The translations under genes and the position numbers were made by a program. DNA of 53,138 nucleotides from Clostridia bacterium (GTDB lineage Bacteria > Bacillota > Clostridia > Christensenellales > UBA1242): positions 1 through 53,138 of the forward strand of contig JAGASX010000010.1 of the NCBI GenBank assembly GCA_017621525.1, written 5' to 3'. The notes under the pieces were generated by a model. That model was not told the origin of the DNA, searched no databases, and was given only the letters and a program-made list of their open reading frames with translations. Positions 19,001-36,258 of this stretch are shown one piece after another (position 1 is the stretch's first letter; each line of letters begins with the position of its first letter).

Positions 19001-22000
19001 AACAGAGGTAAGTTCACTTTGATAGTAATATCCGCTGTCGCTTCCTGTATAAACGCCCTTTAAACTTATATCGTTTGCAAGGTTGAATTTAAGGGTGCTC
19101 ATATAGCGTATATCATTTGGATTGTAAGAAATGTTTATTTGGTTGTTTCTTGTTGTAAGGCTTGGCGCGTTTAGTTTATATAAGCCCTTTATAACGTAAG
19201 AATCACTTTCCACATTCATTGTTGAAGGTGAAATAGAGCCGTTAAGTGAAAGAACAATATATTCATAAACTCCGCTTTTATCAAGTTGCAGTTTAACCAT
19301 TCCGTTTTCAAAGTTTTGACGGATTGAAGTTTCTGCCTGTGATGTGATTTTGTATCTTGCCAAAATTTCATAAGTTTGGTCAAGGGTTGCATTGATTGTA
19401 AATTGTCCGTTTACAAATGTTATGCCGTCAGTTTGCAGGTCAAGGTACCTTAAATTAAACTTGGCACTTTTGCCGTTTACAACATATCCGTCATCACATT
19501 GGTATGTGAAAATGTTGGCGGTGATAAGAGTGTTCACCTGTATTTTTTCGCCATAACCAAGCACTTCCAATGCATCTTTAAGTTTATTCATATTCAACTT
19601 AAATGACGGAATAGCAAGGTTTGATGCAACATTTGTAATCACGCCGTCAACCGCGCTGTTTAAATCTTGTCCGCCAATTGAAATATGCCAACTTGTGCCG
19701 TCATAACCAATGATGAAGTTTATGATTTCATCAAGCATATAAAGGCCGTCTTTTGGTGCATAGCGAAGTTGCATTTTGTAAACCTGACCAAGTTGTTTTG
19801 TGTATCCACTGCCTGTATTTACCATATTCATTGTTGGTTTTACAATTGCAGTATAGTATGTTTCACCGTCGCCTTCTTCTGTCTGCAAAGTAAGTTCAGG
19901 CGATGCAGAAATATAAATTTTTACCGCCTGTGAGTAATTTGATTCAATAAAGTTTGATTGCCCTACTTGGCAAATTGAGAACAGGTATTCACCTTCCGGC
20001 AGAATTCTTGCAAAGTCGTCAATTAAAACCACATTATCGCCAATTCCATGGTTGGAACGTGAAATTGATGTGATAAGTGCATCGGTGTTTTGCGCCTCAA
20101 TAGTGTCAAGGTTTTGAAGCATAAGTTGTTGGTAAATGCGAAGAAGTGTGATGTAACTATCTGTCATTGTGTTTTGATTTTCAACCGTCGCATAATCTCT
20201 TGAAGCAAAGGAAATGTCTACATCAGGCATAAGTACAGATGCGTTTATTGTGCCTGTATATGACAAGTTGGTTGCACCGCCACCGCTTACAGAGGTTATT
20301 CTCATTTGAAGCAACGCCTCATCGAATGTTGGAACGGTAAATGCAAATGGCGACTTATAAACTTCAAGACCTATTTGACTATGGAGCGACTGTGCAGGTG
20401 TTGTCTGTCCAAAATATTCGATTATATCTTGCATAAAGTCGCTTGCCAAAAATGCATCATGTTTGTAAACAATTTGTCCGTCAACAACATCAACCGCGAT
20501 AGGTGTTGGGTAAAGCATTGTGTTGGTTTTTTCAGACTCTCTGCTTGCGACCACATTTTTGTTGAAGTTAAGGGCAATGATGCTTACATTGTATGCATTG
20601 TTTTCTTTAAGTCCAACTGTACGCATATCAATGGCATTTGCTGTGGTAAGAATTTTCTTGGAAGTGCCCAAAATCATATTTTCAAGCACAACATAGTATG
20701 AGGTTGGGGTAGGCTCTCCGCCCGCCTTGTTCTCCCATGTCCAACGCAAATAGTTGTTTTCAATGGTAAGAATGTTTGCCTCATCGGCACCGTCGTTTAC
20801 GCAGTTGAGTTTATATAAGTCATACACATTTGTATTGTATTGATAGTAAGTTGTATCAGTTTTGCCCACGCGTGCAATCTTTATTGACACATCGCCATAG
20901 GCAATTGTAGAAAGCAGGTCGCGTATGCTTACCGCATAGCACTTGGTGTAAATAAGGTTTGCCTCTGTGCCCTTTTCTTGGGTGAAATAACCATTTTTAC
21001 CTTCAAGGTCGGTTACCCAATAGCCTAAAACATCGCTTGGGTAGAAGTAGAAATTGCGTGTGTCTTCTGTGTAGTCATAGCGAAGTTCGCTTTCTTCTGG
21101 CGGTGGAGTTTCTTCGCCACCTTCGCCCTCTTCGCCCGTTCCGTCGCCGGTATCTTCGCCGTCGCCGGTGTTTGTATCATCTTCAATAATTTCATCCATA
21201 AACAAGCCGGTAAGGCGAATTGAAAATGCTGTGGTTGAAATGCCTTCATTGTCAGCATCAAAAATTAAATAATCCTTTTCCAAATCTCGTCCACGCACAA
21301 GGCTTGGGTCGTCGCCGGTGCGATAGCCTATTGTAAGTGGCGACCACGCACTGCGGATAAAGCCAAATCGTCTTACAGAAAATTCTATCTCATATTCTGT
21401 ATTTGTAAGTTGAATTTCGCTTGCAAACAGGTCGAATATTTCCGCCATTGTAACAAAGAATTGAGTTTCACTTCCCTCTACCGTTTGGGCAGTGAAGTCC
21501 TTTTCAATATAGGCATCTTCACCTGTTTTCATTCTTGCGGTAAACACAAGGTCATCATAATGATGAAGGACTAATGTGAAGTTAATATTCCCCTTGTCGT
21601 CAACTGAAATATCTTGTAAGTTGTCAATCCTATATCCATAATGGTCTTGATATTGATAACTTGGCAAAATTGCCCCTGTTGCATCAAAGGTTATATAATC
21701 AATGTCATAATATCCACCAAATGGCACAGCACCGAAGAAGTCATCAGCCATAAGGTCAAATTGAGGGTTTTCTTTAATTTCTTCGGGGTGTATAATCTTT
21801 ACAACTTCTTGGTCGCCAAGGCGAAGTCGAAGTGCATATGACGCCCCCTCAACAGGCTCATCAATTGTCATTATGCCATCATTATCAATTAAAACCGCCG
21901 GTTCACTTTCAAAACGAACAACATCAAAAGTTTGAGTTGTAGAGCAAATTGCATCATTGCTGTAAACATTTAAGTTTATTTGGTTTGGCACATTGTTGCC

Positions 22001-25000
22001 TGTGAAGAAAAGTGTACACAGTGAGACATCTCCATGGCTCCATGATGGAACTTGAATATGGAAATATCCGTCAATAAGTTGAATGTTTCCGCTGTTTGCT
22101 CCGTCAATCCTTGAACGCGACCAGCAAGTTGTAATTTCTGATTCGTGGTCTCTCAAACAACCTGCCGTATATGCCTTCCAAGTTAATGCAAAGGTAAGGT
22201 CGCTGTCGGCATGGTTTGTCCAAACGTCTTTTACAATAAATTCAAAACCAGAAAGGCGGATATTTTCAAACTCGCTTTCATATTTATCTGACGGCTTAGC
22301 CCTCATAACAACTTCTGTTGGATTGTCAATTTTTGTTGTTGTAAAAATTTGAGAATCTACGCTTCCAATAAAGCCCTTTGCACCTGCCCCGCGAAGAACA
22401 TAGTCATATTGCATTTGGGCTGTAAGCCAAACTTGCACCTCTCCGGCAAGAAGTGTTGCATTTAAGTAATTTTCTATTTCATCATAGTAAACAAATCTTT
22501 CATTTTCTACAATGTATTGGTATACATTCTCTCCGCTATCTTTTGCGTTGACAACATATACAATAGGTTGTGTTTCTGTGCCGGTAAGTGTTTTTAATTC
22601 ATTTGACCAACGCAAAACACCCTCATTGCAATCTTTAAAAATTTCTTCATATGTAGTGTGTGTTACATCAAATGTTTTGTTTGCAAGGTTTTCAACTGTA
22701 ACTGCGAATGGTTTAGAGTTGAAATAATAGTGGGTTGTATCGCTGTTTTGTGCTTTAAGCATAATTTCAAATTTTGTAGTGTCTGCAAAATCTGCAAAAT
22801 TAAATGTTGCAATGTTTGCTCCAATTGTGTAGTTTACATTTGAAGAAGAGCCGTTTACAAGCACCTGTCCAACATAAGATTGGTCATAAAGAATTGCTAT
22901 TGTGCCAAAATAGCCGTCTGCTGTTTTTGATATTGCAAGTGCGTCGTCAAGTTGCAACTGCTCTATATAAATTGGGTCTGAAAGTTGGCTGTCAAGATAT
23001 GTTTTATTAAATGCTTGCACCTGAATTTTCTTTGCAATTAAAAAGTCATAAGTGCCAAGGTCTGACAGTGTGATTTGTGATGAGGTATAGCCCTCAATCG
23101 CAAGAATTTCATCAACATAAATGTCATAAGTTGAGTTTTCCGCCTCTTCCGTCCAAGAAATTATGCAATTTTCATCATCAAATGAAAGTTGTGGTTTTTT
23201 CAGTGTGTATATATCAAGGTGAGTTTCGCCGGAAGTTGTAACCGCGTTTGGTGATGGCAGGCGGTAAACTTCACCCTGAACGCCGTCGCAGAATGAGTAC
23301 ATTTCAACTTGCAAATACTCTGCCTGTCTGTATGCAGAATTAAGTGTTGGGTCGGTTGATGTCAACAAGTCAACAAGTGATTGCAAGTCATAGGTGCTTT
23401 CAGTGTTTTCAATTTGGAATGAGTGATAATAGTTTGCCGATTTGCTGTTGATAAGCCCTAAAACACCCTCAAATCTTAATACAGGAATGGTGTTAAGGTC
23501 TGTCCATGAAATATATCCGTCATAATATGTGAATGTGCTTGGAGATATTGCACGATTGAATGTTGTTTGGTTTGCAACGCTTGCAACATAGTATTGATTG
23601 CCGTTGTTCTCTGCCGGCAAATATCTTGTTTGTAAGGTGAACGAACTGCCAAATTTTGTATAGTCGAAAAGGTCAAGCGTAAAGCCCTCTTGGCTGATAA
23701 CCTGTCCGTTCATAACAACTTCAACCGCCGTAGCGTTGGAAATTACCACATAATTTTGATATTCATTTGTGCGTTTGCCAAAAATATCTTTTGCATATTC
23801 CATTTCAAAGGTAACCTCGGCAAGTCTTTCAACACCCAAGATTTGTGGATTGCTGTCAAGGTACAAAACAGGGTCATATTTAAGTCCGCTTTTTGCAATT
23901 ATTTGAACATCATAATTTTTTGCATCTGCAAGTGGATTTTGAAGAATGTATGCATATTCTTCCCTTTCTTCACCTACTACAATTGTTCCGTCAAGGTTGC
24001 CGTCAACATAGATGTCATATTGCCCGCCAAATTCAACCGCTGTTATGGTAAGCGTAAGCGCGCCATTATCATCTTCAAATTCAACTTCTGGGGTTTCAAT
24101 TGTGTATGTTGCAATAAAGTTTTGGGTAAAGAATGAATTTTCATCAACAAAATTGCAGTCGAGATTAAAGTTTGTATCTGTTGTTTTTGAATAAATTTTT
24201 ATTGTGTAATAACTGCCAAGTGGAAGAATTGGGTTTGTTGTAAGGTCGGTTGTAGTGCCCGTTAAAACAGGTGTATTATCGGTTACGTTGTACTCTTTAT
24301 CAGTTTTGTAAACTTCATAGTAATATTCAACTTCACCTTCAACGCCATTCCAAGCAAAATAGCCATTGGTTTGGCTGTCCGCCTCGCTTACAACCTCCAA
24401 AATGGAAATCGTCCTTTCTTTTTGCACTTGCAATGCGTGTTCTACGCCGTCTTCAATGGTTGTAGCAACAATTGTGAATGTATAATCTCTGCCGTTTGGT
24501 GAAATCTGGCCAAGGTTTTCAAAAGAAATTTGCACTTTGCCGTTTTCTACCACCCTTTGCACATCTGTCATAAGGTTGCCATTGATGAAAAGCGTATATG
24601 TATTTGCGTTTTCCACTTCATCAAAAGTGATTGTAGAAGTTGTGCCGTTAAGTGCGTGCGTAAAGTCTGCAATTTCTTCAAGAACGAAGAAATTGAAAAT
24701 GTATTCGCTGGAATTTACAACACTTTCGCTTGACGCATCGCCAAAATATTTTTCTTGAGCGCCCGATGATGAAGTTTCATCTGCGTTTGGCAGTGCGGTA
24801 ACCTTTATTGAATGTTGCCCAACAGGAAGAACTGAAAGGTCTATGGTTGCGGTAAGCCCACTTTGAATGTTGTAAGCAATACTTCTTCCGCCAAATGAAA
24901 TTTTATAATTTTTTGAATAGTGATTTTCATTAAAAGTAACTTGGGCAGTTTTGCCTACAAATTCAACAGAAACTTCTGGAACTTCAAGTTTTGCATAAGT

Positions 25001-26131
25001 TTTTACAGTTGAGGTGTTGCTGTTAAGGAAAAATCCGTTTGCAGTGGTTTGTCCCAAAGCCATAATTTGAACATTGTAAAGGCCACCTTCAAATCCGTCA
25101 AGAAATTCCTTTATTTCAGCCCCACTTACAACGCCATGCACTTCGCTGTCGCCGGCAAAATTTGTTGCAGAAAGCAAATAACTGTTTGCGTTTGCCTCGC
25201 CAGCCCATGCAATTGCGCCGTCGGTGCCGTCATAGTTGTAGTTCAGGATTGGGGTTTGAAGTTTTGTAAGTGTAAACTTTGAAGTTGTTGAAAGTTTTGT
25301 GCCTACCATGTCGTTTGCAACAACCAAAAGTTCCAACTCACTTCCGCCCGCATATCTTGTAAAGTCAAATTGGAAAAAGTTTTCGCTTATGCCGGAAGCA
25401 AGTTTAAAGCCTTCCAGCCAAACATCGTAAGTTGCCTCCTCTTTGGCTGTCCAAGAGAATTTTGCAATTTGGTTGCCAATTGTTTGCTCTACCTGCAAGT
25501 TTGCCCCTTCAACCAAACCCATAACACCGTTGTTTATATCTTTTGTTATGGTTTTTGAGTTGTCAATTTCTTCTTCATCGCCCAAAGCGGTGATTGAAAT
25601 GTTGTACGCCCCTTTATTTGGGAATGTGAATGAATTTTCTGTAACAGACAATTCGCTTAATGCACCAAGTGTGCCGGTTGCATCATATTCAGCATATTTA
25701 ATCTTATATTCTTGGGCATAAATTGTTTTACCATTTTTTACAATAAATGATTTATCCCAAATTAAAGTGTAATCGTCGCCAATTTGAAGATTTTTTGGGG
25801 AAGAAAATTTATACTTAACATTCACCTTTGCCTTTGCAATGGTTTTGTTGTCGCTTTTTGCAAATATGTAAGTTTCACCAGAGTTTATCGCCTTGTATTG
25901 CCCTTTTGCCTCTTTCTGCAAAATTCCTTCATTTGAAAGGTCAAAAATAACACCCTCTGCGTCTATGCCTTGTAAGGTGATTTCATCTAAAAAATTGATT
26001 GTTTCTTCCAATGATAAATTATATTCATTTTGTGCAAATTGCCCACTGATATTTGATGGGCTGTTGCAGGCAGTTAAACAGCCACTCACCAAAAAGGCAA
26101 ACATAAAAAGCGTAAAGATTTTTTTCTTCAT
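16088..26131 (-). CDS. Giant (~3347 aa) surface lipoprotein with many beta-sandwich (Fn3/Ig-like) repeats and a C-terminal GLUG-like region
   Basis: Uninterrupted ORF; likely start MKKKIF at 26131 (GAGGT RBS); LTAC lipobox; recurring KL..P...W....A..Y modules; GGNGTKANPYLI and VGGIVGVNYGNITGC near the C-terminus. Confidence 0.8.
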   Translation of the reverse strand: MKKKIFTLFMFAFLVSGCLTACNSPSNISGQFAQNEYNLSLEETINFLDEITLQGIDAEGVIFDLSNEGILQKEAKGQYKAINSGETYIFAKSDNKTIAKAKVNVKYKFSSPKNLQIGDDYTLIWDKSFIVKNGKTIYAQEYKIKYAEYDATGTLGALSELSVTENSFTFPNKGAYNISITALGDEEEIDNSKTITKDINNGVMGLVEGANLQVEQTIGNQIAKFSWTAKEEATYDVWLEGFKLASGISENFFQFDFTRYAGGSELELLVVANDMVGTKLSTTSKFTLTKLQTPILNYNYDGTDGAIAWAGEANANSYLLSATNFAGDSEVHGVVSGAEIKEFLDGFEGGLYNVQIMALGQTTANGFFLNSNTSTVKTYAKLEVPEVSVEFVGKTAQVTFNENHYSKNYKISFGGRSIAYNIQSGLTATIDLSVLPVGQHSIKVTALPNADETSSSGAQEKYFGDASSESVVNSSEYIFNFFVLEEIADFTHALNGTTSTITFDEVENANTYTLFINGNLMTDVQRVVENGKVQISFENLGQISPNGRDYTFTIVATTIEDGVEHALQVQKERTISILEVVSEADSQTNGYFAWNGVEGEVEYYYEVYKTDKEYNVTDNTPVLTGTTTDLTTNPILPLGSYYTIKIYSKTTDTNFNLDCNFVDENSFFTQNFIATYTIETPEVEFEDDNGALTLTITAVEFGGQYDIYVDGNLDGTIVVGEEREEYAYILQNPLADAKNYDVQIIAKSGLKYDPVLYLDSNPQILGVERLAEVTFEMEYAKDIFGKRTNEYQNYVVISNATAVEVVMNGQVISQEGFTLDLFDYTKFGSSFTLQTRYLPAENNGNQYYVASVANQTTFNRAISPSTFTYYDGYISWTDLNTIPVLRFEGVLGLINSKSANYYHSFQIENTESTYDLQSLVDLLTSTDPTLNSAYRQAEYLQVEMYSFCDGVQGEVYRLPSPNAVTTSGETHLDIYTLKKPQLSFDDENCIISWTEEAENSTYDIYVDEILAIEGYTSSQITLSDLGTYDFLIAKKIQVQAFNKTYLDSQLSDPIYIEQLQLDDALAISKTADGYFGTIAILYDQSYVGQVLVNGSSSNVNYTIGANIATFNFADFADTTKFEIMLKAQNSDTTHYYFNSKPFAVTVENLANKTFDVTHTTYEEIFKDCNEGVLRWSNELKTLTGTETQPIVYVVNAKDSGENVYQYIVENERFVYYDEIENYLNATLLAGEVQVWLTAQMQYDYVLRGAGAKGFIGSVDSQIFTTTKIDNPTEVVMRAKPSDKYESEFENIRLSGFEFIVKDVWTNHADSDLTFALTWKAYTAGCLRDHESEITTCWSRSRIDGANSGNIQLIDGYFHIQVPSWSHGDVSLCTLFFTGNNVPNQINLNVYSNDAICSTTQTFDVVRFESEPAVLIDNDGIMTIDEPVEGASYALRLRLGDQEVVKIIHPEEIKENPQFDLMADDFFGAVPFGGYYDIDYITFDATGAILPSYQYQDHYGYRIDNLQDISVDDKGNINFTLVLHHYDDLVFTARMKTGEDAYIEKDFTAQTVEGSETQFFVTMAEIFDLFASEIQLTNTEYEIEFSVRRFGFIRSAWSPLTIGYRTGDDPSLVRGRDLEKDYLIFDADNEGISTTAFSIRLTGLFMDEIIEDDTNTGDGEDTGDGTGEEGEGGEETPPPEESELRYDYTEDTRNFYFYPSDVLGYWVTDLEGKNGYFTQEKGTEANLIYTKCYAVSIRDLLSTIAYGDVSIKIARVGKTDTTYYQYNTNVYDLYKLNCVNDGADEANILTIENNYLRWTWENKAGGEPTPTSYYVVLENMILGTSKKILTTANAIDMRTVGLKENNAYNVSIIALNFNKNVVASRESEKTNTMLYPTPIAVDVVDGQIVYKHDAFLASDFMQDIIEYFGQTTPAQSLHSQIGLEVYKSPFAFTVPTFDEALLQMRITSVSGGGATNLSYTGTINASVLMPDVDISFASRDYATVENQNTMTDSYITLLRIYQQLMLQNLDTIEAQNTDALITSISRSNHGIGDNVVLIDDFARILPEGEYLFSICQVGQSNFIESNYSQAVKIYISASPELTLQTEEGDGETYYTAIVKPTMNMVNTGSGYTKQLGQVYKMQLRYAPKDGLYMLDEIINFIIGYDGTSWHISIGGQDLNSAVDGVITNVASNLAIPSFKLNMNKLKDALEVLGYGEKIQVNTLITANIFTYQCDDGYVVNGKSAKFNLRYLDLQTDGITFVNGQFTINATLDQTYEILARYKITSQAETSIRQNFENGMVKLQLDKSGVYEYIVLSLNGSISPSTMNVESDSYVIKGLYKLNAPSLTTRNNQINISYNPNDIRYMSTLKFNLANDISLKGVYTGSDSGYYYQSELTSVDSVVPYIVGSVNGYDEVIYPSELMAEEFYAYLSGNSGTFTVSDEAVSQGDILLVFSETRPVLSSSVSVIEAKMLPSINSIGLYGGDFYLDDRCVGIDMVTDKDFNHLSGNIVYEILVRYYGFDNLDENGNTLMELHEETLYSERMYASEVQSFAQIVGSQFISADYEYFTISVTVLGALRADKDTANAIQTLEGTYLLLADSVYFGPNSEYPSADYGQHALRSLTVTSPIMTRTKAPFLASESNGVMNGALQFVIDKSLFYYEDSIGGRMRGPLICGDEGEEDESNKIAQHTASRISITAKYGYGGGTITEQVYGTITFSTSTELGQENYVYCSVVPSEGLFSMAMDTISFYITIYGRSQITSVPLVINDVYKLPQVTEEYYDVELVGERTYLNFTKYFERISIANDFSCYKVTIQYMLAGDDAVYTEELTSSSPIKRFELYSTLTILSIQAQDAQDGTTLNPKKLLYSDTTILALNQTSIDGLQVSWNSQAMRFEWSWADGRTEEYEYYVSLYVSGKQETEIVSTNYYMPHNRGLISSGGFEIRARVKSQGTNQMYSFSDRLVYEGEEISYLLYSGGNGTKANPYLILNETDFINIEKRNTIDKKFYFALGDNVTINLANLYTTVDGTLKPIIKEFYGSLDGSGYKLTITSSIVANLDTPFEGALVGISSLNFTQYSSIFHSLSAVAEIKNMYIDYTIAYNNMFDSFIMFSPIAMYNFGEISNVNVTEFTVKNLGGKGENNVFVGGIVGVNYGNITGCTNSATFAYSMAQQLSLNFGFGGICAYNGNITSAYGVISNCFCQGEKQVTVSVNNNLVYLAGITISNAGKISTSGNDGNLKLNARGAGVTTFTGYYAGITVASNNGVLEYLYNNGTIENASSYGTLNFGGIAYVISGGTINTLVETVAGQPIAKSCTSKPTSLGSNYATASSGTHSLITTLALSAQSINCPNSYVLKIATSGEGFKASIAKA

Positions 26132-26388
26132 AGCGACCTCTTCCTTTATTATTTTCATATTAACACTTTTTAAGCCATTTAGGCAAATGTTTTAACAAAT
26201 TTTGCCTAAATAAATATCTAAAAGATATTTTATATTATTAAATAAAAATTTTTTTTAAAAATATTTAAAAATAAAAAATAATGAAAAATATCACAAAAAA
26301 TCATTAAAAATTAAAAAAAATAATAAAAAATAATGAGAAAATTAAAATAAAAATAAAAAATGCCTATAAAAATAGACATTTTTGTTTT

Positions 26389-27870
26389 TTATGAAAGATA
26401 TGTTCCGTCGTCCTCAATTTCTTTATTTTCATAGTTTTGATAAACAGATTCTGCAATTGCAACAAGGTCTTCTTTGTCGCAAACCAAAACTTCTTCAAGG
26501 TCGTCGGCTTTAATATCATACTGTGCCTCTTTAAGTGCAATTGCATCGGCAACGGTAAAATTGCCAGCCCTTCTCATTCTTCTATCCTCGCGTTTAAAAG
26601 CACGCAGTTTTGCCTTGCCTTGGGCGTTAAGGTCATAAAATTTAATTATTCCGTCAATATTTGCAGTATACCAGCCATGGACAAGGGAATTTCTTATTTT
26701 TTCAAGTGTTTCACCCGCGTTTACTCCCACCATTGCGGTAACATTTTCATCATCATCAAAATTTGCGTCTTTATTGTAAAATTGTGATGTAAGAACAAAT
26801 TTTGCATAGCCAATTGCGTCATGGCAAAGCAAAACTTCTGGGCTGTTTGCACATTTCCATGCAAGGTATCCGCTTTCATCACCCATCATAGTTTGCAGGC
26901 GTTCATTTAAAATTTTGTTTACGCCAAAATAATCTTTTGCAGGCTCTTCACACATAATTTCATTAAAAGCAAAATTTAGGTCATTTGCAATTGCGTTTGC
27001 ACTGCGTTTTGGACGATAATATAACGCCATAAAAATTTCATTTTTTCTCTTGAAAAATTTTGCCAAACCTGTTCTGTTTAAATAAACCTTTTTGCCCTCT
27101 GGGTGTTCTTTTAAAAATTGTGCATTTTTAAATTTTAAATAGCCATTGGATATGCTTGCAATTCTTCTTGCGTTATTCTCTTTTATAATCGCGCCGTCAA
27201 CAAAGCGATTTACCTGCCCTAAATACTCTTTCAAAAGCGTTAATGGTGCGTTTACTGCATCATTCTCTCTGCCGTTTAAATAAAGGGATACAACCACTTC
27301 GCCACCTTCGCTTGAAAGGTCATAATTATTATGCGCAATGGTGTTGCGAATTCTTGTGCAAAGCAGGTCCTCTTTCATCTCTAAAAATTGGTCATGCCCT
27401 GCAAAAAGTTGTCTTTTAAGGCGAAGATATGAAATGTTATGCCCTGCACGCTCCCAATCAACGTAACTATAAAAAATCTCTTTAAATTGAATTAAATTGC
27501 CCAAAATGTTAGACACATTTAAGTATGCAATATTGTTTAAATCGTCGCGTGAAATACCATATTTTTCGGCCTCTACAAATATTTTTGCAAGAGGTGCATT
27601 TTCCCCAACCATAATCTCTTTTGTTTTGATAAGTGAAAGCCAAATCCTTCGCATAAATTCAAGCGAATCATTTTGATAATCTCTGTTATATTGCCCCGCT
27701 TTAAAATGCAAAAATTGCATAAGACATGAAGGCTCTTGCTTGTTTTTATCATTCTCTGTCAAGCCATTTACAAACTTAAAATTATTATAGAAAAAAGATA
27801 TTGGCGACCTTACAAGTTCCAACGGACCTCTTCCCTCTTCATTTTTGTAAAAACCTTTATTTTCTTCCAT
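26389..27870 (-). CDS. Hypothetical protein with two HEPN-like RNase motifs (RNTIAH and RNSLVH)
   Basis: Open 493-501 aa frame; motifs at nt 27331-27348 and 26677-26694; probable start MEENKG at 27870, just downstream of a promoter. Confidence 0.7.
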   Translation of the reverse strand: MEENKGFYKNEEGRGPLELVRSPISFFYNNFKFVNGLTENDKNKQEPSCLMQFLHFKAGQYNRDYQNDSLEFMRRIWLSLIKTKEIMVGENAPLAKIFVEAEKYGISRDDLNNIAYLNVSNILGNLIQFKEIFYSYVDWERAGHNISYLRLKRQLFAGHDQFLEMKEDLLCTRIRNTIAHNNYDLSSEGGEVVVSLYLNGRENDAVNAPLTLLKEYLGQVNRFVDGAIIKENNARRIASISNGYLKFKNAQFLKEHPEGKKVYLNRTGLAKFFKRKNEIFMALYYRPKRSANAIANDLNFAFNEIMCEEPAKDYFGVNKILNERLQTMMGDESGYLAWKCANSPEVLLCHDAIGYAKFVLTSQFYNKDANFDDDENVTAMVGVNAGETLEKIRNSLVHGWYTANIDGIIKFYDLNAQGKAKLRAFKREDRRMRRAGNFTVADAIALKEAQYDIKADDLEEVLVCDKEDLVAIAESVYQNYENKEIEDDGTYLS

Positions 27871-27876
27871 ACTTAT

Positions 27877-27904
27877 ATTGTATAACATAATCACATTTTG
27901 TCAA
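27877..27904 (-). promoter_or_regulatory. Sigma-A promoter of the dual-HEPN gene, probably giving a leaderless mRNA
   Basis: TTGACA-16 nt-TACAAT; ATG follows after 6 nt; no SD sequence. Confidence 0.55.
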
Positions 27905-27937
27905 GACCCAAAGTTGATTTTGGGGCGGAAATTTCTT

Positions 27938-28187
27938 TCAATCAAGCCAAACGTACACCCTTGCCTTGTTATCTATAATACCCACCCAAAATGATAATTT
28001 ATTGTATATTTTTTTATAAATATAATTGCCTATATTGTAAAGTTTCTTTATCATTCCTTTCCCATGAGTGTTAGTTAAAAGTTTTGCAATATGGCTCATA
28101 AAATCATCACATAATTTTTCAACATATTTTAAAGATTCTTTGTTACATTTTTTACAATATTTTATGTGTGTATTTTTTCTTTTTCAT
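27938..28187 (-). pseudogene. Frameshifted small ORF (~82 codons) with a CxxC
   Basis: ATG at 28187 (MKKKKY...) stops after 11 codons; the adjacent frame is open 28183-27938 (…IKYCKKCNKESLKYVEKLCDDFMSH…VYVWLD); alternatively a 53-aa ORF from ATG 28099. Confidence 0.4.
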
Positions 28188-28242
28188 AACCCCATTATAT
28201 CATGAAATAACAAATATAATAAAGTTTTAAATAAAAAATATT

Positions 28243-28313
28243 AAAAAATTCAACCCCGCGTGGCGTTACCGCCGATTTCCAATAAACAAAGTATTGGCAT
28301 TGGTTGAATTCAT
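28243..28313 (-). ncRNA. Putative structured small RNA, cassette B
   Basis: TTGACT-17-TATAAT promoter (28346-28318); closing stem AAUUCAACC/GGUUGAAUU plus U-run; internal hairpins CCAAUA/UAUUGG and GGCG-GUAA-CGCC. Confidence 0.65.
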
Positions 28314-28350
28314 GATTATTATACTTCAAAAAAACAGAAAAGTCAACTAC

Positions 28351-28404
28351 AAAAAAAAGATGGGATTATCGATGCCATACCGCTTCGCCTCTATCCCTAT
28401 CTTT
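28351..28404 (-). ncRNA. Putative structured small RNA, cassette A
   Basis: TTGACA-17-TATATT promoter with TG extension (28439-28411); closing stem AAAGAU(A)GGGAU/AUCCCAUCUUU ending in a U8 run. Confidence 0.6.
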
Positions 28405-28430
28405 AATAATAATATATCAAAATATTTACA

Positions 28431-29852
28431 GTGTGTCAATAAAAAATTTTAACATAACTTTCAAACGAGTAGATGGACAACCAGTATGGAACAAAGGTTT
28501 TAGACTTATCTGAAATAACATAACTCTCAAACATGCAAGCGTCGGAGCAACAAAAGACGAAGGTTTTAGACTTATCTGAAATAACATAACTCTCAAACCA
28601 GTTTAAAAGTCTTGAAATGTGGAATAGTGTTTTAGACTTATCTGAAATAACATAACTCTCAAACGATGTTGAAACCTATGGAGATGGTGTTGATGTTTTA
28701 GACTTATCTGAAATAACATAACTCTCAAACTTAAAGAACTCACTCCATTTTTTGTAATCTGTTTTAGACTTATCTGAAATAACATAACTCTCAAACCTCA
28801 TCATTTACTTGCTGAACAAACTCGTTGTTTTAGACTTATCTGAAATAACATAACTCTCAAACGTTGTTATAGTGCTTTTGGGCATATAACCAGTTTTAGA
28901 CTTATCTGAAATAACATAACTCTCAAACACCCAGACGCAACTATTGCGACAAAATTTGGTTTTAGACTTATCTGAAATAACATAACTCTCAAACACTAAA
29001 GCACAAAACAAGTCAATCAAAAATGTTTTAGACTTATCTGAAATAACATAACTCTCAAACATTACCAGTCTTTTTAGCTTTAATAAAAGCGTTTTAGACT
29101 TATCTGAAATAACATAACTCTCAAACTATCTTGAACCATTTGTCTTTCAAGTTTAAGTTTTAGACTTATCTGAAATAACATAACTCTCAAACTTGGCGAA
29201 GTTTCAACGCTTCTTGTCTAAGGTTTTAGACTTATCTGAAATAACATAACTCTCAAACCTTGAGCAACTCGTGAAAGAACGTGGGCTGGTTTTAGACTTA
29301 TCTGAAATAACATAACTCTCAAACGATTCATACATGCTGTAAGCAAAACAATCAGTTTTAGACTTATCTGAAATAACATAACTCTCAAACCAAATATGAC
29401 TGCTGAAACTGATTTTATTAGTTTTAGACTTATCTGAAATAACATAACTCTCAAACACATAAAAGCGTTTGAAATACTATATAATAGTTTTAGACTTATC
29501 TGAAATAACATAACTCTCAAACTTAGACCATGTTTCCCAATGGTCGTTGCGGGTTTTAGACTTATCTGAAATAACATAACTCTCAAACATACTTTGGGCT
29601 TAGAAGATTGTTTTCTCTGTTTTAGACTTATCTGAAATAACATAACTCTCAAACCCCTTGCATTTGTTCTTGTATACTTGCGAGGTTTTAGACTTATCTG
29701 AAATAACATAACTCTCAAACATAGAATTTATGTCCCTGACAACTATATTAGTTTTAGACTTATCTGAAATAACATAACTCTCAAACGCATTAAGTATTAT
29801 AATGTGGATAAACAAAGTTTTAGACTTATCTGAAATAACATAACTCTCAAAC
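28431..29852 (-). CRISPR. Type II-A CRISPR array: 21 identical 36-nt repeats (GTTTGAGAGTTATGTTATTTCAGATAAGTCTAAAAC on the minus strand), one degenerate trailer repeat and 21 spacers of 30 nt
   Basis: Exact 66-nt periodicity from 28497 to 29852; degenerate copy at 28431-28466 keeps aacataactttcaaac; orientation set by leader, tracrRNA complementarity and the degenerate end. Confidence 0.99.
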
Positions 29853-29970
29853 CTCAAATTTTGAAAAGTTATTTTTCGCTTACGGCGGTTATTTTTTTAT
29901 CGATAAGTCTTTTTTGAGTTGATAAGTCTATTTTTTTTATTATTTTAACCTATTTTTGACAATTTTTCAA
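29853..29970 (-). promoter_or_regulatory. CRISPR leader with promoter and leader-anchoring sequence
   Basis: ATTTGAG immediately before the first repeat (known type II-A leader end); TTGAAA-17-TAAAAT at 29970-29942. Confidence 0.8.
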
Positions 29971-30636
29971 TCAAATTACGCATAAATCTTTATCAATTAT
30001 AATTTTTTCAAAGATTTCAGAGCCTGCATAATCACTGCTTGCAATGTTTAAAACGCCAACCTGCCAATATTTTAATTGTTTTAAAAGAGTAGCCATTTTA
30101 TCTGCGTCGAGAACAGACTGCAAATTAACAAAAACAAAAATTTTTGTATTTTTAAGTTTAATATTCACATCAACCCAAGTTGCAATTTTGTCTACAAGTT
30201 TTTCCTCTTCTAAAATTTTGAATGATAAAAGTTTGCATATAGTTTGATAAGTGATTTCTTCACTGCTTTCAAGAGGAAGGTCTATGTTGTCAGAAATTTT
30301 TTCACCTAATGAATGAATTTCCGAAGCAATTTCTTGCACTTCTTGAAAATAGTCGCCCTCCTTAAACACATTTAAAACTTTTGCATTTATCCCATTCTCA
30401 ATTTTCTTGTTAGAAAGCGCAAGTGAGAAAAAATCATAAATTACAGAAACAATGTTTTCAATTTGAAGAATTTTGCCATTTTCAGAAAGTACCCACTCTC
30501 CATATTCTCCGTCAATTTGGGAAATAAGTTGTTTTGTAAGAGAATAGAACTCTTGCGGATTTTCTATAATTAAAGTTTGGAATAGATTTTCATCAAAATT
30601 TATCTGCCTATCAAAATTTTTATGAACAAGTTTCAT
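29971..30636 (-). CDS. csn2: Type II-A CRISPR-associated protein Csn2
   Basis: 221 aa after cas2; LIIENP, FVFVNL, IIIDKDLCVI motifs. Confidence 0.93.
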   Translation of the reverse strand: MKLVHKNFDRQINFDENLFQTLIIENPQEFYSLTKQLISQIDGEYGEWVLSENGKILQIENIVSVIYDFFSLALSNKKIENGINAKVLNVFKEGDYFQEVQEIASEIHSLGEKISDNIDLPLESSEEITYQTICKLLSFKILEEEKLVDKIATWVDVNIKLKNTKIFVFVNLQSVLDADKMATLLKQLKYWQVGVLNIASSDYAGSEIFEKIIIDKDLCVI

Positions 30637-30953
30637 AATTCCACCACCCTTTTTGTAGAGTCTATAACCTTTGTTTGGGCACTTCCCACATAATATTCAA
30701 TACTTGCAAATTGTTTTTCTGTAACTTCCAAAAGTTCTACAAGGCCAGCAGGAGGAATGTTTTTAAGCAACTGATTTTTTAATAGTTTTGATGAATTATT
30801 GTTTAAAACAAGTCTGGAATAAACCGATTCTTGCATCATAATAAATCCGTTTTTTAACAAAAACTTACGAAATTTTCGATACTCTGCCAAATCTTTGTTT
30901 GTAACAGTTGGCAGGTCAAAAAACACTAACAATCTCATAATCCTTCTACTCAT
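30633..30953 (-). CDS. cas2: CRISPR-associated endoribonuclease Cas2
   Basis: MRLLVFFDLP, YRKFRKFLLKNGFIMMQESVY, VTEKQF. Confidence 0.97.
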   Translation of the reverse strand: MSRRIMRLLVFFDLPTVTNKDLAEYRKFRKFLLKNGFIMMQESVYSRLVLNNNSSKLLKNQLLKNIPPAGLVELLEVTEKQFASIEYYVGSAQTKVIDSTKRVVEL

Positions 30954-31803
30954 AATTACAAATTAGTCTTGCGTCCCCCTCTTCAAGAGCCTCAAAAATG
31001 CGTTGACAATATATTGAAATAGCATTTTCAAAATATTGTAGTTTATCGCAAATTTTTAATTGTTTTTCAAAAATTTGCAACATTTTTGCTTTAAAATCAT
31101 CATTTTCTTGCAAATTTAGTGCGATTTCATCAATCAGCGGGCGAAAAGGTTCCATTAAATCACAGCCTAAATTAAAATCATTAAATTCATTTTTATGCCA
31201 AATCCCAAGTTGAGTTATATAACCACACTTTACAATTTCGCGATTGAAGCATGAAAGTAAAATTGTATATCCGTAATTTAAGGCAGAATTTGTTTTTGTA
31301 AATTCTCCCCGCGAAAAATCCATACCAAAAAGTGCATTGAAATATACTTTCGCAGAATGTCCCTCGCGGTTTGTTGCATCGTTTAATTCAATTTCTTCAA
31401 CATATTTATCAAGCAATTGTCCCTCATTAAAATGACCATATTTTTTAAGAAGCCTGCTTTGATTTTTAATTTTCATTTCAACAATTTTCGCCCAAACCCG
31501 AGCCTTAACATCATCTTTCCATGCAATTTGCATTTTTATTTTCTTTGAGGTGTTATGACTGCCATAAAGTGGAAGAAGTTCACTTTCAGGCGAATGTTTT
31601 TCATCACAAAAAATTATTTTTACCTTATTTTTTACAAGTTCGCTTATCAGCGCGGTTGTAATTGAAATCGCTGTGGACTCTAAAATTAAATATGAAATTT
31701 CCGGAATAAAAACCTTTGTTTCTTGTTCACATCGGCAAACAAGATAATTCATTTTAAGGTCAAGTTTACAGCGATTTTTTACAACAATTGTGCGAAAGCC
31801 CAT
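30946..31803 (-). CDS. cas1: Type II CRISPR-associated endonuclease Cas1
   Basis: IIFCDEKHSP, DATNREGHSAKVYFNALFG, NSALNYGY, FNLGCDLMEPFRP. Confidence 0.97.
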   Translation of the reverse strand: MGFRTIVVKNRCKLDLKMNYLVCRCEQETKVFIPEISYLILESTAISITTALISELVKNKVKIIFCDEKHSPESELLPLYGSHNTSKKIKMQIAWKDDVKARVWAKIVEMKIKNQSRLLKKYGHFNEGQLLDKYVEEIELNDATNREGHSAKVYFNALFGMDFSRGEFTKTNSALNYGYTILLSCFNREIVKCGYITQLGIWHKNEFNDFNLGCDLMEPFRPLIDEIALNLQENDDFKAKMLQIFEKQLKICDKLQYFENAISIYCQRIFEALEEGDARLICNYE

Positions 31804-31805
31804 TT

Positions 31806-34800
31806 TTACAATTTTACCACCTTTTCAAAAATGCCCGTTTGAGAACGCATAACAAGTGAAATGTTTTTATCGGTAATGTTTTTGTTAAGGGTAACAATAC
31901 CTATATTTTTTGAATCTTTCAGTTTTACAAATTTAATACCCTTAGAATTAACTGATAGACCTTTTGCGATTGCAAGCACTTCTGGAACCTGTTCTTTAAT
32001 GGATAAATTTATAAAATTATCCCTTTCTTTTTGAAGAACTTCTGCCAAACCATAAAGTTGCGTTTCTTTATAACAATTTTTTGTAAACTGCTTTGTTATT
32101 TCATCATAAAGTGCAAGATTTTTCTCTTTTGTGATAAGTCTTTCTTGATTTAATGTTTTATCGGAAGGTGAAAGGGCTATTTCATTATCAGAAACTTGAA
32201 CACCGCTGTTTTCCGTCCTTTTCATTCTTTCAAGGTCGGTAAATTTTTCAAGATTTTTAATAATCTGAACACACCATCGAGGAGCATGCCATTGATTAGC
32301 ATTTTTCAATTGAAAACAATCTCCACTTTTTGCGGACAGCCAATATTCTCCGCCACCTATTTTTAATGTTGAAACCAAGTTTATTTTAGGAATAAGAATT
32401 TTGGCATTTTCAAGGTTGTATCTTTTGGCAAGATATTCAAAAATCTTTTGGTCGCAATTTTTATCTTTCTGATATTTTTTATAAATCATAACAGGTACGC
32501 TTTCTATGGTTTTAATTTTCTTGCCCTTGTTCTCGCTTTCAATAAGCATGTAGTAAGCAATTGTTTCGCTGTTATATCCACCATACAATCCAATATCAGC
32601 AATTGGGCTGTTTTCACCTTTAAGACTTATTTTCGCCTTGCTATGTTCACCGATAAATTTGCTGTTTTTCTCATTTTTATAAATAGTAGCATCATAAAAT
32701 GCACCATTTTTCTTTGCATAGTTCATGCGACTGACAAGGCAATCATTTTTTTCGCAAATTTCTTTTACCCTTAAAATATCCTCTTTGCCATTCCATATAA
32801 CCTCTCCCGATTTTGGAGAATAAATGGTATGTTCAAAAATTTTACCGATATTTTTTGTGGTTTTGCTGTTTTTATTATTTACTTTATAGAAATTTCTTGG
32901 GTCATCAGTGAAACGGCTGTACAAAACATTACCTGCAACAATGTTAAGATATGCGTCCTTTGCGTGATGCAAATCATTAACAGAACGGCATTTTATAATA
33001 TCTGCACACGACTTAAATTCATTTGCCATACTTGCTTTTGAATAAACAATCTTTCGCGGGTCGTCTACCATGTTTTTAAGAAGTTCAATAACAGCCTTTG
33101 CCGTTTGATGAGTTTCTACCATTTGGCGAGCGATAAAACCACCAAGTTCTTCCTCTGTTATTGGGGTTTTGCGGGTAAGGTTTGCGTATTTTTTGTCAGA
33201 CATAAGTCCGCATTTATGTAAAATTGACCAAAAATATTGTTGGCTTTCAACCCAATCTGGGTGTTTATTAAAAATTGGATAATCATCTTCTTTTTCTCTG
33301 TTGTATTGACTGAGAACAAGCACCTTGTTGTCTATGCTGTCATCTTTTATCATTGCTTGAGGAATGATATGGTCAACATCGCAAACACGCTGGTTGAATA
33401 CTTCGTCAATTGAAAGAGGCTGTCCGGTGTATGCACATTTGCCAAGTTGAAGGAAATATAAATATAGTTTTTCACTTTTAATTTTGCTTGCGGTGTCATC
33501 ATGATTAAGCTCATTAAGAAGTTCTTGCAAATCCAAGGTTAAACCTTTTACACAATCTTTAAATTCTTGTGAAGTATATATTTCCTGCAGTTTTTTCTGA
33601 CGAGAAAGTTTTTCGCCCATATCAGGACGCTTTTCTCTTGCAACTTCTACAAAAATTTTATCTGGCATTTTGCCGAGTGCAAGTTTTACCTCATCAATTA
33701 TTTTTATAGTCTGCCATACAGAGCGTTTTACAGCCGGCGAGCAATACAAAGCATCAACATCTTGGTATGTTATTGTATCAAACTTTGCCTTTCTAAATTT
33801 TCTTAATTCTTCTTGCAAAGACAGGTTTGAATCGTTGACTATTTCCATAAGATTTTGATTTGTATTCCAAAGTCTTTCAATAACGGTTATCGCTTCGCCA
33901 TTTTCATCAGCAAACAAAAGCCCATGCAAGAATTTTTTTGAAAGTCTGCCCCAGCCCGAGCAGGTGATTGATTTAAGTTCTTTAATTTGTCCATCGTTTA
34001 GCCTATTGCCAAACTTCTTTCTTATACAACTTTCAAGTCGGGTTTTATCTGCAATTATAGTTTTAAGTTTGATAATCTCCTCAAACATATCCAAATTGTC
34101 ATCAACAAATTGTTTGCCAAAAAGAGGGCTTGTTGATAATTTTGCATAAATGCCAAAATTGTTTTTAAATTCTTTGTTTATTCCTTCAATAACAATATCT
34201 TCGCCAAGTTCTGCCTTTAAAAACTCTTTCAGTTTTTTGATTGTAACTTTATTTTCCCTTTCAAAAAGTCCTTCAAAAATTTTTTGTTTCAATTCAACTG
34301 AAATATTTTCACCATTCAGTCGTAATTTATTCAGTTCATCAAGTACCATAAATTTAGAATACAAAATTGATTGTTTTGGCAAAACATCTTCGGTTGGAAG
34401 TTGACTGCACTTACCCGTCATGCGAGAGATAAAACTTTCTTCCGCCTTATCAAAATCCACAATTTTGTTCAGTGTCCAAGGACGAAGTGGGATATTGCTT
34501 TCCTTCACCGACCAAGCAAATTTTCTTTCCTCTTCATCTTTTCCGCCAATTGGCCCTACAAAATATGGCACGCGATATTCAATTATTTTTATTATTTTTT
34601 CTGCATTTGTCAGCCCGCTTTCATCTTTTTCATTAAGGAATGGATATTTTGTGGCGTTTACTTCAAGTATTCTTTTTGCCTCGTTGACATAAAGTTGGTT
34701 TGGAAATGTTGCATTTACTTTTGTTCTTTGTTTGTTTAAAAAGTCGCCATTTTCCATGGCAAGGTAAATTTTATTTTTAATTTTTTTGAAGTTTTCATCG

Positions 34801-35987
34801 CCATCTTTTTTCTTGTCAAGAACTGATTTTACATACTTATAAAAATCTTCCCTTGTTGCGCTTTTTGTTCCACCAAATCGAACAACTTGTTTTTGTCCGT
34901 CAAAAATACTTCCATTTACATAAACAGCATAGTTTACATTTTTAAAATCTTTGCCCTGTCCAAGGCGGAACATATTTGAATATTCTTCCGGGTAATATGT
35001 TTTTATAAACTTCTTAAATTCTTTAAGTTGTTCTTTGTGTATACCAAAAAGTTGAGTATGAGCTTGACAAATATAATCATTGTTGCCTAAAAATTTCTTT
35101 AAAATTATGATTGAATAAAGATTTTTAAGTTTTTCAAGCATTTGCAACTGCTCATCTTGCAAAAATGATAACGATGCAATTGTTGTGTCTATTTCATCAT
35201 CAGAGAAATTTAATTTTGTTTCATTCTCTTCCTCAATTTCAAAAACATCTTTCAGGGTTATTTTTCCGTCTACAATGGCGCAAACAACCGCCTTTTCAGC
35301 CTTGGTTTTTGCACCAAAAAGGTCGCACAATTGTTTTTTCTTATCCCTTATTCCATTATTATTTTTAACAATCTCTAAAATTGCGTTTTCTTCGGGCGAA
35401 TATATTGATGAAATTTCTTCTATGCTTTTAAATTGTTCTATAAATTCATCAACCACCCTTTGCAAACTTTGATTTTTGCCAATATCGCACTCTAAAAGAA
35501 AGTGCCCGCGACGCTTTACGATGTTATGAAGTGCAAGATACAGAAATCGTATATCTTTCGCTGGGGTTTGGGTAAGTTCTTCGCGAAGATGATAAATGGT
35601 TGGATAATTGTTATAAAAATCTTTATCTGTATACTTTTTTCCATCAATTTCATCGGCAAAAAGAGAATTTTTTGATTTTAAATTTTTCTTTAATTTATCA
35701 TCAATGTAAAGACTGCTTGCTTTAAGTCTATCAAAAAAGCGAGGGTCTTGCTTATCAACTTCCCTTTCAAAAACTTCGCGAAGCCACGCAAGTTTAAGTT
35801 TTCTTCTTTCAAGTCTGCGTCTGCCTGTTCTAAACGCACGTCGTTCCTCTGCCGACATTGCCTCATCAAAAAGGCGTACTCCCCAAAGTTTTTTGCGCTT
35901 TGCCCTAACAATTTCATACTTGTCATTTGTAACCGCCCAACCACAACTGTTTGTGCCGGCATCAATTCCTAAATAAATTTCTTCCAT
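31806..35987 (-). CDS. cas9: Type II-A Cas9 (1393 aa from the likely ATG at 35987)
   Basis: RuvC-I YLGIDAGTNSCGWAV, Arg-rich bridge helix, RuvC-II IFVEVARE, HNH DVDHIIPQ...DNKVL, RuvC-III HHAKDAYL; AAGGAG RBS before MEEIYL. Confidence 0.98.
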   Translation of the reverse strand: MEEIYLGIDAGTNSCGWAVTNDKYEIVRAKRKKLWGVRLFDEAMSAEERRAFRTGRRRLERRKLKLAWLREVFEREVDKQDPRFFDRLKASSLYIDDKLKKNLKSKNSLFADEIDGKKYTDKDFYNNYPTIYHLREELTQTPAKDIRFLYLALHNIVKRRGHFLLECDIGKNQSLQRVVDEFIEQFKSIEEISSIYSPEENAILEIVKNNNGIRDKKKQLCDLFGAKTKAEKAVVCAIVDGKITLKDVFEIEEENETKLNFSDDEIDTTIASLSFLQDEQLQMLEKLKNLYSIIILKKFLGNNDYICQAHTQLFGIHKEQLKEFKKFIKTYYPEEYSNMFRLGQGKDFKNVNYAVYVNGSIFDGQKQVVRFGGTKSATREDFYKYVKSVLDKKKDGDENFKKIKNKIYLAMENGDFLNKQRTKVNATFPNQLYVNEAKRILEVNATKYPFLNEKDESGLTNAEKIIKIIEYRVPYFVGPIGGKDEEERKFAWSVKESNIPLRPWTLNKIVDFDKAEESFISRMTGKCSQLPTEDVLPKQSILYSKFMVLDELNKLRLNGENISVELKQKIFEGLFERENKVTIKKLKEFLKAELGEDIVIEGINKEFKNNFGIYAKLSTSPLFGKQFVDDNLDMFEEIIKLKTIIADKTRLESCIRKKFGNRLNDGQIKELKSITCSGWGRLSKKFLHGLLFADENGEAITVIERLWNTNQNLMEIVNDSNLSLQEELRKFRKAKFDTITYQDVDALYCSPAVKRSVWQTIKIIDEVKLALGKMPDKIFVEVAREKRPDMGEKLSRQKKLQEIYTSQEFKDCVKGLTLDLQELLNELNHDDTASKIKSEKLYLYFLQLGKCAYTGQPLSIDEVFNQRVCDVDHIIPQAMIKDDSIDNKVLVLSQYNREKEDDYPIFNKHPDWVESQQYFWSILHKCGLMSDKKYANLTRKTPITEEELGGFIARQMVETHQTAKAVIELLKNMVDDPRKIVYSKASMANEFKSCADIIKCRSVNDLHHAKDAYLNIVAGNVLYSRFTDDPRNFYKVNNKNSKTTKNIGKIFEHTIYSPKSGEVIWNGKEDILRVKEICEKNDCLVSRMNYAKKNGAFYDATIYKNEKNSKFIGEHSKAKISLKGENSPIADIGLYGGYNSETIAYYMLIESENKGKKIKTIESVPVMIYKKYQKDKNCDQKIFEYLAKRYNLENAKILIPKINLVSTLKIGGGEYWLSAKSGDCFQLKNANQWHAPRWCVQIIKNLEKFTDLERMKRTENSGVQVSDNEIALSPSDKTLNQERLITKEKNLALYDEITKQFTKNCYKETQLYGLAEVLQKERDNFINLSIKEQVPEVLAIAKGLSVNSKGIKFVKLKDSKNIGIVTLNKNITDKNISLVMRSQTGIFEKVVKL

Positions 35988-35991
35988 TTGC

Positions 35992-36020
35992 TTGACTCCT
36001 TTGTAAAAATGTTGTATATT
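35992..36020 (+). promoter_or_regulatory. tracrRNA promoter
   Basis: TTGACT-17-TATATT directly upstream of the anti-repeat; its -35 overlaps the cas9 RBS on the other strand. Confidence 0.7.
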
Positions 36021-36026
36021 AATGGT

Positions 36027-36107
36027 GAATAACATAACGAGTTCAAATACATTTATTCAAAACATATCGCAGAGTGGCGAGCAAGATGAGGGTTTCCCTC
36101 ATTTTTT
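36027..36107 (+). ncRNA. tracrRNA
   Basis: Anti-repeat AATAACATAAC-GAG-TTCAAAT pairs with repeat GTTTGAGA-GTTATGTTATT with the usual bulge; ends in hairpin atgaggg-ttt-ccctcat plus a T-run. Confidence 0.9.
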
Positions 36108-36257: not shown

Positions 36258-36258
36258 A

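Follow-up and report, generated by a model that had tools for sequence, protein, structure and literature searches.

What is a gene for a small protein with two HEPN-type ribonuclease (RNase) motifs doing directly behind a Cas9-associated CRISPR array? The question is raised by a 53,138-nt stretch of DNA from a Clostridia bacterium, contig JAGASX010000010.1 (hereafter the window, whose positions serve as coordinates throughout; the genome that contains it is G000). On its minus strand, a type II-A array with a degenerate last repeat is followed by two units that each consist of a promoter, a structured RNA and a U-run (cassettes A and B), a broken small open reading frame (ORF) and the gene in question (Table 1). 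All of these elements, which an initial annotation had listed, are present in the sequence. That annotation had proposed a compact HEPN RNase controlled by the small RNAs and acting beside the type II-A CRISPR system. Our analysis leads to a different reading, which we hold to be probable: the gene encodes a tandem-HEPN RNase that acts on its own, as a defence, abortive-infection or toxin enzyme, belongs to a rare, unnamed family and is not part of a CRISPR-linked system. The RNase activity and the defence role are predictions from sequence.

The ORF as listed is 501 amino acids (aa) long and starts from a GTG, and the homologues begin at the Met encoded by ATG 27870. Because the promoter ends just upstream of this ATG and the homologues start there, we take the product to be 493 aa long. 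Its two R-N-x3-H motifs, RNTIAH and RNSLVH, are 218 residues apart, and the size and spacing given in the initial annotation are thus correct. Both fit the R-x4-6-H pattern of the HEPN superfamily, in which the R is followed by a polar residue. A family alignment was made from 15 sequences (two short partial matches, P0007 of 166 aa and P0016 of 211 aa, were left out), across which identity to the query drops to 16–26%. The residues that are invariant in this alignment, besides the start Met, are the N and H of motif 1 and the R and H of motif 2, and the R of motif 1 is nearly so. Invariance that is limited to motif residues at about 20% identity is a signature of catalytic residues.

The two halves of the protein are related to each other. 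Aligning the N-terminal with the C-terminal half in hhalign gave a P value of 6.8e-5 and a score of 36.7; the 119 aligned columns place the two motifs opposite each other, and the reversed control scored 10.9. The Atlas indicated PF18736 clusters for each half separately, with all scores below its bars, and was used as a lead only. A search of 300 genomes of the class for PF18736 produced no match above the cut-off. The reference set was built from a gene of plasmid pEK499 annotated as 'HEPN family nuclease' and comprised 118 homologues, all but one carrying PF18736; a profile was made from 87 homologues of 148–185 aa. Against these 87 proteins, the N half gave an hhalign probability of 69%, a P value of 4.5e-5 and a score of 37.1. 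The alignment spans 139 columns, which is the whole domain (~150 residues), and places RNTIAH on RNSVAH. Among the controls, the target read in reverse gave a score of 11.2 and the scores of 20 column shuffles ranged from 9.3 to 17.3, with P values of 0.05 or weaker. As a yardstick, two accepted HEPN families, pEK499_p136 (PF18736) and Abi_2, score 24.1 against each other. The N half also matched Abi_2 (12 proteins, from 9 of 151 genomes) with P 0.001, over 65 columns around the motif only, and for the C half this comparison gave P 0.17. Because the halves are homologous and the N half matches PF18736, we predict a single-chain tandem-HEPN protein. These two results, with the invariant motif residues, bear out what the initial annotation had proposed about the protein itself, namely a compact single chain with two HEPN-type motifs.

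The family is rare. A word-indexed search of 5.8 billion proteins at E ≤ 1e-3 returned three proteins, the window's own among them, and a HMMER profile search of 1.84 billion cluster representatives at the same threshold returned 16 matches. Members are 412–661 aa long, and their hosts are uncultured rumen and gut Clostridia. A subfamily of 514 aa (the P0005 cluster) is more abundant, with contigs of up to 145 kb. Among 61 genomes of the genus, a profile search found strong matches in six (G000, G800, G805, G807, G793 and G811) and weak matches in two more. Beyond the genus, a sample of the order held weak matches only (3 of 400 other genomes), and a sample of the class held none at E ≤ 1e-5 in 398 other genomes. 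Neither a tblastn search of phages and plasmids nor a search of viral contigs found a family match, the Protein Data Bank gave none by sequence or by profile, and a scan of metagenomes for the family yielded a single 3.9-kb contig. Part of the window is contained in 20 listed read runs, all from metagenomes of gut, faeces or ruminant-associated sources, mainly bovine or sheep; among them is a single RNA run, with a share of 0.19.

Two side observations concern the breadth of the family. G807 carries two diverged paralogues of 412 and 424 aa in tandem, 25 nt apart and each with both motifs (L039, G807:C56, 3519–6105), and this pair may be a two-subunit version. In addition, distant two-motif relatives with RN/CNxxxH motifs, one of 466 aa in L003 (G287, 427–1827) and one of 543 aa in L005 (G377, 1399–3030), hint at a superfamily wider than the 16 profile matches. 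In the G377 relative, C replaces R in motif 1.

We compared the locus in the window with eight other family loci: those of G800, G805, G807, G793 and G811, and those of two distant relatives. The closest homologue, in G800 (74% identity), has its promoter and start as in G000 but lies behind housekeeping genes, with holB, ricT, a methyltransferase gene and a glycosyltransferase gene before it. The G805 homologue lies between a gene for a 3123-aa protein and rpsF-ssb-rpsR, those of G807 between a tRNA gene and a giant gene considered below, and those of G793 and G811 among unrelated small genes. A CRISPR array was found at none of the eight loci by a detector that scored five of five II-A control loci of the genus. 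The cassettes, the small ORF and the repeat had matches of only 10–15 nt at these loci, and Rfam at E ≤ 0.1 recognized tRNAs alone at the five homologue loci. One of the five other carrier genomes has a Cas1 match (the four without one are 72–94% complete), and adjacency to a cas9/csn2 locus occurs in one of the six carriers. Across the genus, csn2 is present in 8 of 61 genomes, two of which are family carriers and close kin. A motif screen of ORFs of at least 100 aa found no HEPN-type gene after the arrays of five other II-A loci (L025–L029).

A strong promoter lies directly at the gene in G800, G805, G807, G793 and G811. The close spacing of promoter and ATG seen in G000 recurs in G800 and G805, and the genes of G807, G793 and G811 have a short Shine-Dalgarno leader. 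In G805 the terminator of the upstream gene nearly abuts the -35 box, with no room for an intervening RNA. Since the homologous genes have their own promoters and lack arrays and cassettes, the family works without these RNAs and without CRISPR. The linkage to small-RNA cassettes and to type II-A CRISPR, and with it a co-occurrence of homologues with cas9 arrays and upstream RNAs, therefore did not survive the comparison; the association is seen in G000 only, and the coincidental clustering that the initial annotation had allowed for fits best.

The promoter of the HEPN gene in the window, with no more than 6 nt between it and the ATG, implies a leaderless mRNA. As a separate observation, a -10 box 6 nt before the ATG, without a Shine-Dalgarno sequence, is shared by the three family members of G000, G800 and G805 (27877–27870 in the window, L002 4442–4462, and upstream of the gene in L038/L006) and predicts leaderless mRNAs for them. 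Across the G000 genome, a TA[ACT]AAT box 5–7 nt before the ATG occurs at 25 of 515 long ORFs.

In the reading we favour, each half of the protein would be a pEK499_p136-type HEPN domain that has diverged, and the two R-N-x3-H motifs would join within one chain into one composite RNase site, as they do in Cas13 and Cas13an. The protein may act as a self-contained accessory RNase, in defence, in abortive infection or as a toxin. The gene stands as a unit of its own, driven by a strong promoter right next to its start codon; its location behind the Cas9 array is specific to G000, and the cassettes and the broken small ORF are not conserved parts of the unit. The motifs and their conservation, the internal duplication, the HEPN homology of the N half, the patchy distribution and the variable upstream context support this reading directly.

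Several results weigh against it. The direct match of the C half to PF18736 is weak (P 0.007), and this half is tied to HEPN chiefly through its homology to the N half. When 15 family members were searched with Pfam, one touched PF18736, at E 0.93 and below the gathering score. The 493-aa protein itself matched no Pfam family at E ≤ 1 and no family of PADLOC or NCBIfam. The family loci are not recognizable defence islands, with rpsF-ssb-rpsR, holB-ricT, tRNA genes and the giant surface-protein gene as neighbours. A constitutive RNase without a partner, as the gene would specify, also raises the question of how it is held in check. Finally, cassettes A and B are in all probability genuinely transcribed, and this reading offers no role for them.

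Compact single-chain HEPN dimers have been described before, and, judged by its sequence, the present family most likely adds to this known kind. According to the accessible text of the report on Cas13an (PMC12165695), these proteins, ancestral effectors of type VI, are 429–577 aa long with two HEPN domains, 10 of 13 lie beside orphan arrays, and both Foldseek and hidden Markov models (HMMs) missed them. The available part of a preprint adds two Cas13an-like proteins from Proteobacteria (10.1101/2025.09.30.679098). The statement in the initial annotation that the protein is far smaller than known Cas13s is thus out of date. The present protein is like Cas13an in its length, in having two HEPN motifs in one chain and in being missed by ordinary HMM or Foldseek searches. 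As far as that text goes, Cas13an differs in lying beside orphan arrays with their own conserved repeats, whereas the present family is arrayless at eight of nine loci and the array in G000 belongs to a full II-A system. The same text gives 12 clusters of intramolecular HEPN dimers in all, including ten further non-CRISPR clusters (Yoon et al. 2024; PMC12165695). The present family could be one of these ten non-CRISPR clusters or lie outside them.

The nearest known family is pEK499_p136 (PF18736), which is listed among the HEPN families linked to defence in the accessible text of Anantharaman et al. (2013, PMC3710099); its members are predicted nucleases found with restriction-modification, Pgl and NamA genes. 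The N half aligns with its whole domain, including the R-N-x3-H motif and the conserved hydrophobic-x-K/P-E helix that precedes it, and the C half aligns weakly. The members of pEK499_p136 considered here are single-domain proteins of ~160 aa or fusions to Mrr-type nucleases, whereas the present family carries two copies per chain and falls below the Pfam threshold. The named sources of the homologues we fetched are nearly all Proteobacteria, in contrast to the uncultured Clostridia that host the present family. AbiF and AbiD (Abi_2, PF07751; non-coding RNA (ncRNA) AbiFr, RF03085) share the R-N-x3-H HEPN motif and the stand-alone gene, and their motif aligns with that of the N half. The available text on AbiF (PMC12737573) describes a one-domain HEPN protein that dimerises and is neutralised by its own ncRNA; relative to this conserved cis-encoded ncRNA and single domain per chain, the present family has two domains per chain and no conserved ncRNA was found. 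Pfam detected no Abi_2 domain in the 493-aa protein. In the literature found, supplementary tables aside, no tandem pEK499_p136-type protein is described.

Single-chain HEPN dimers are thought to be the starting material for Cas13, and few such families have been described. The present one, which has no name in Pfam, NCBIfam or PADLOC, appears to come from another HEPN branch (pEK499_p136) than AbiD/F, the branch to which Cas13an is linked. It would supply a further, independent case of this architecture, as well as a compact candidate RNase. The locus also holds a negative lesson, as the gene's proximity to a Cas9 array and promoter-driven hairpins was not borne out by relatives.

Table 1. 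Features of the window (JAGASX010000010.1) discussed in the text.
Feature	Position	Strand	Details
Predicted tandem-HEPN gene, 493 aa, stop codon included	26389..27870	-	ORF; likely start ATG 27870
HEPN motif 1, RNTIAH, residues 175-180	27331..27348	-	aligns with RNSVAH of pEK499_p136
HEPN motif 2, RNSLVH, residues 393-398	26677..26694	-	aligns with motif 1, half versus half
HEPN gene promoter, TTGACA-16-TACAAT, 11/12	27877..27904	-	ends 6 nt before ATG 27870
Giant predicted surface-lipoprotein gene, 3356 aa, directly downstream of HEPN gene	16088..26158	-	
Orphan small ORF, frameshifted	27938..28187	-	ATG 28187
Cassette B	28243..28346	-	promoter 28346-28318, ~70-nt three-way-junction RNA, U6
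Cassette A	28350..28439	-	promoter 28439-28411, ~50-nt hairpin RNA, U8
Type II-A CRISPR array, 21 full repeats and degenerate terminal repeat	28431..29852	-	
cas9, cas1, cas2, csn2 operon (type II-A)	29971..36035	-	Pfam
cas9	36035-31806	-	Pfam; operon runs down to 29971 (csn2 end)
Candidate trans-activating CRISPR RNA (tracrRNA) gene	35992..36107	+	promoter 35992-36020, anti-repeat from 36027, terminator 36083-36105

One alternative is that the protein is not an active RNase and that its motifs are conserved for something else, be it RNA binding or a role that involves no cleavage. It could draw on the lack of a curated model match and on the C for R in motif 1 of the distant G377 relative. 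It could also draw on structure: an AlphaFold2 model of the whole chain from 15 sequences reached a mean confidence (pLDDT) of 75.7 and a fold score (pTM) of 0.77, and structure searches with this whole-chain model gave nothing above noise and matched no HEPN structure. However, the R, N and H of the motifs alone are invariant or nearly so at this level of divergence, which is a catalytic pattern, and the profile homology to a HEPN family covers the whole domain; we consider a non-nuclease unlikely.

A second alternative concerns the cassettes. The HEPN protein might be restrained by RNA A, RNA B or both, as in a type III toxin-antitoxin system like AbiF/AbiFr, and provide the II-A locus with an abortive-infection or addiction module. 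The cassettes themselves are probable transcription units. The promoter of cassette A (TTGACA-17-TATATT, with a TG) and that of cassette B (TTGACT-17-TATAAT) each match the consensus at 11 of 12 positions. Sites of at least 11/12 number 162 in the 925-kb genome, counting both strands, and the 566 bp here hold three of them on a single strand, where 0.05 would be expected; at a density so far above chance, the promoters are probably real. Folding energies are -16.4 kcal/mol (z -2.7) for the hairpin of cassette A, which precedes a U8 run, and -19.2 kcal/mol (z -2.1) for the three-way junction of cassette B, which precedes a U6 run; both z-scores are modest. The 'terminators' that the initial annotation had assigned to the cassettes are a reading of a hairpin plus a U-run, and these are indeed present, but a terminator scan listed neither hairpin, as both fall outside the scanner's loop and stem rules.

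Two strong co-oriented promoters, each with a short structured RNA and both just upstream of the gene, would suit such a module, as would the lack of an evident protein partner and, in the available text on AbiF, its neutralisation by a cis-encoded ncRNA (PMC12737573). The comparison with relatives nevertheless makes RNA restraint improbable. The cassettes have no second copy in their own genome. Comparing the 566-bp region as DNA with 60 other genomes of the genus gave no match that covers a cassette, only matches of 26 to ~74 nt, nearly all on the AT-rich spacer or the A-rich start of the ORF, with four weak matches (E 6e-4 to 1e-3) that touch a cassette. The 74%-identical gene of G800 has the same promoter without cassettes, and, as described above, the other carriers have a promoter directly at the gene, in G805 without room for an RNA. 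Rfam at E ≤ 1 found no family, RF03085 included, in window positions 26000–36500, and the homologue loci likewise gave nothing but tRNAs. In a scan for RNA–RNA duplexes between A or B and the window, self-complements alone stood out. One further duplex match, with z -4.9, is antisense to a coding strand and was judged a chance match.

For hairpin A, the position ~60 nt past the last repeat may fit a terminator of the pre-crRNA (CRISPR transcript), whatever its own promoter does. Five further II-A arrays from the genus were inspected by eye, and in at least three (L026, L028 and L029) a degenerate last repeat is followed by a hairpin and a T-run, at a distance of about 30–70 nt. Cassette B and the small ORF may be novel small genes or remnants of inserted DNA. 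From its ATG, the small ORF reaches a stop after 11 codons, and the +1 frame is open for 81 codons (28183–27941); the shift is a single base within an A-run, and could be a sequencing error, a pseudogene mutation or a slippage-prone site. The 81-codon frame opens with a CxxC pair, and the ORF is preceded by TGaTATAAT-N6-ATG (28202–28185), the same geometry as that of the promoter and ATG of the HEPN gene. Searches found no homologue of the small ORF but itself. It was also considered as an antitoxin and ruled out, being frameshifted, an orphan and missing at the other family loci.

A third alternative ties the predicted RNase to its downstream neighbour rather than to defence: it would be a chromosomal RNase associated with the giant lipoprotein gene, for example controlling its very long mRNA. 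The giant gene, whose 3356-aa product has no Pfam domain, recurs next to members of the HEPN family, as no other neighbour does. In G807 a giant orthologue with 34% identity over 3390 aligned positions directly follows the HEPN pair. In G800 the HEPN contig ends 22 nt past the stop codon and another contig starts 269 nt before a giant orthologue (70% identity); the two contigs share 15 nt inside a terminator hairpin, and this short overlap suggests the same HEPN–giant gene order as in G000. The HEPN gene of G805 lies directly downstream of a different giant gene, and in G793 the distance is 1.1 kb between the HEPN gene and an RluA-like gene, whose counterpart in three other genomes is immediately next to the giant gene. 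However, the giant gene (orthologues of 3100–4000 aa) is present in 50 of the 61 genus genomes, compared with strong HEPN matches in six, so that most giant genes have no HEPN partner, and G000 and G800 are close kin that count as one case. The giant gene's upstream neighbour varies widely across the genus, as in a variable region. This variation and the 50 of 61 genomes point to a variable spot rather than a functional pair, and we give the giant-gene reading little chance.

The array behind which the HEPN gene lies (at a distance of 560 bp and on the same strand) has its own machinery. It consists of 21 full 36-nt repeats with a 66-nt period at 28497–29852, which corresponds to repeat and spacer lengths of 36 and 30 nt, and a 22nd repeat at 28431–28466 that keeps 17 of the 18 leading bases and has otherwise diverged. 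Read on the minus strand, the repeat resembles what we take to be the classical II-A form. The cas9-cas1-cas2-csn2 genes lie upstream of the array, on the same strand as the array, the cassettes, the small ORF and the HEPN gene. Just upstream of cas9 and divergent from it, a candidate tracrRNA gene has a TTGACT-17-TATATT promoter and an anti-repeat that pairs with the first 21 nt of the repeat over 19 bp (with a bulge), followed by a 10-bp terminator. Its duplex energy of -16.7 kcal/mol is not outstanding, other windows reaching -22.7, and its candidacy is based on the layout of promoter, anti-repeat and terminator rather than on this energy. With a complete II-A operon and a tracrRNA candidate, the array thus has a full machinery of its own. 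Cassettes A and B had also been considered as tracrRNAs, a possibility ruled out by this unit upstream of cas9.

The protein might also be a Cas13an-like RNA-guided RNase that borrows the II-A CRISPR RNAs (crRNAs) or is guided invariably by RNA A or B. It would match Cas13an in size and two-HEPN architecture and in its proximity to a same-strand 36/30 array: in the accessible text of PMC12165695, the arrays of Cas13an combine repeats of 36 nt with spacers of 30 nt, and type II cas1 and cas2 occur in trans in four of ten Cas13an genomes. But the array is already served by its own operon and tracrRNA candidate, arrays are missing at all eight other family loci and a Cas1 match in four of the five other carriers, and the family is nearer to pEK499_p136 than to AbiD/F, the reported group of Cas13an in that text, all of which makes such an enzyme very unlikely. 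Hardly more can be said for a capture confined to G000, in which a tandem-HEPN RNase at the II-A array trailer would be loaded with Cas9 crRNAs or the two structured RNAs. Were it true, it would offer a snapshot of a stand-alone HEPN dimer turning RNA-guided, a step proposed between AbiF-like toxins and Cas13an, and an independent origin from a pEK499_p136-type HEPN rather than from AbiD/F.

Some minor features of the window are recorded here. The giant gene makes up ~1% of the genome in this genus of small genomes (0.7–1.5 Mb). Between the terminator of the HEPN gene and the promoter of the giant gene, positions 26263–26356 hold A/T runs with a 10-nt period in seven copies, suggestive of intrinsic DNA curvature ahead of a promoter; a similar stretch rich in T-runs precedes the giant orthologue of G800. 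At the other end of the locus, a Shine-Dalgarno sequence near 36000 suggests that cas9 starts at ~35989 rather than at the first ATG, 36035. In the CRISPR leader (29876–29938), the ends of the repeat recur in shortened, inverted form (minus strand, TAGACTTATC...AACTCAAA), and a plus-strand terminator-like hairpin lies at 29876–29888.

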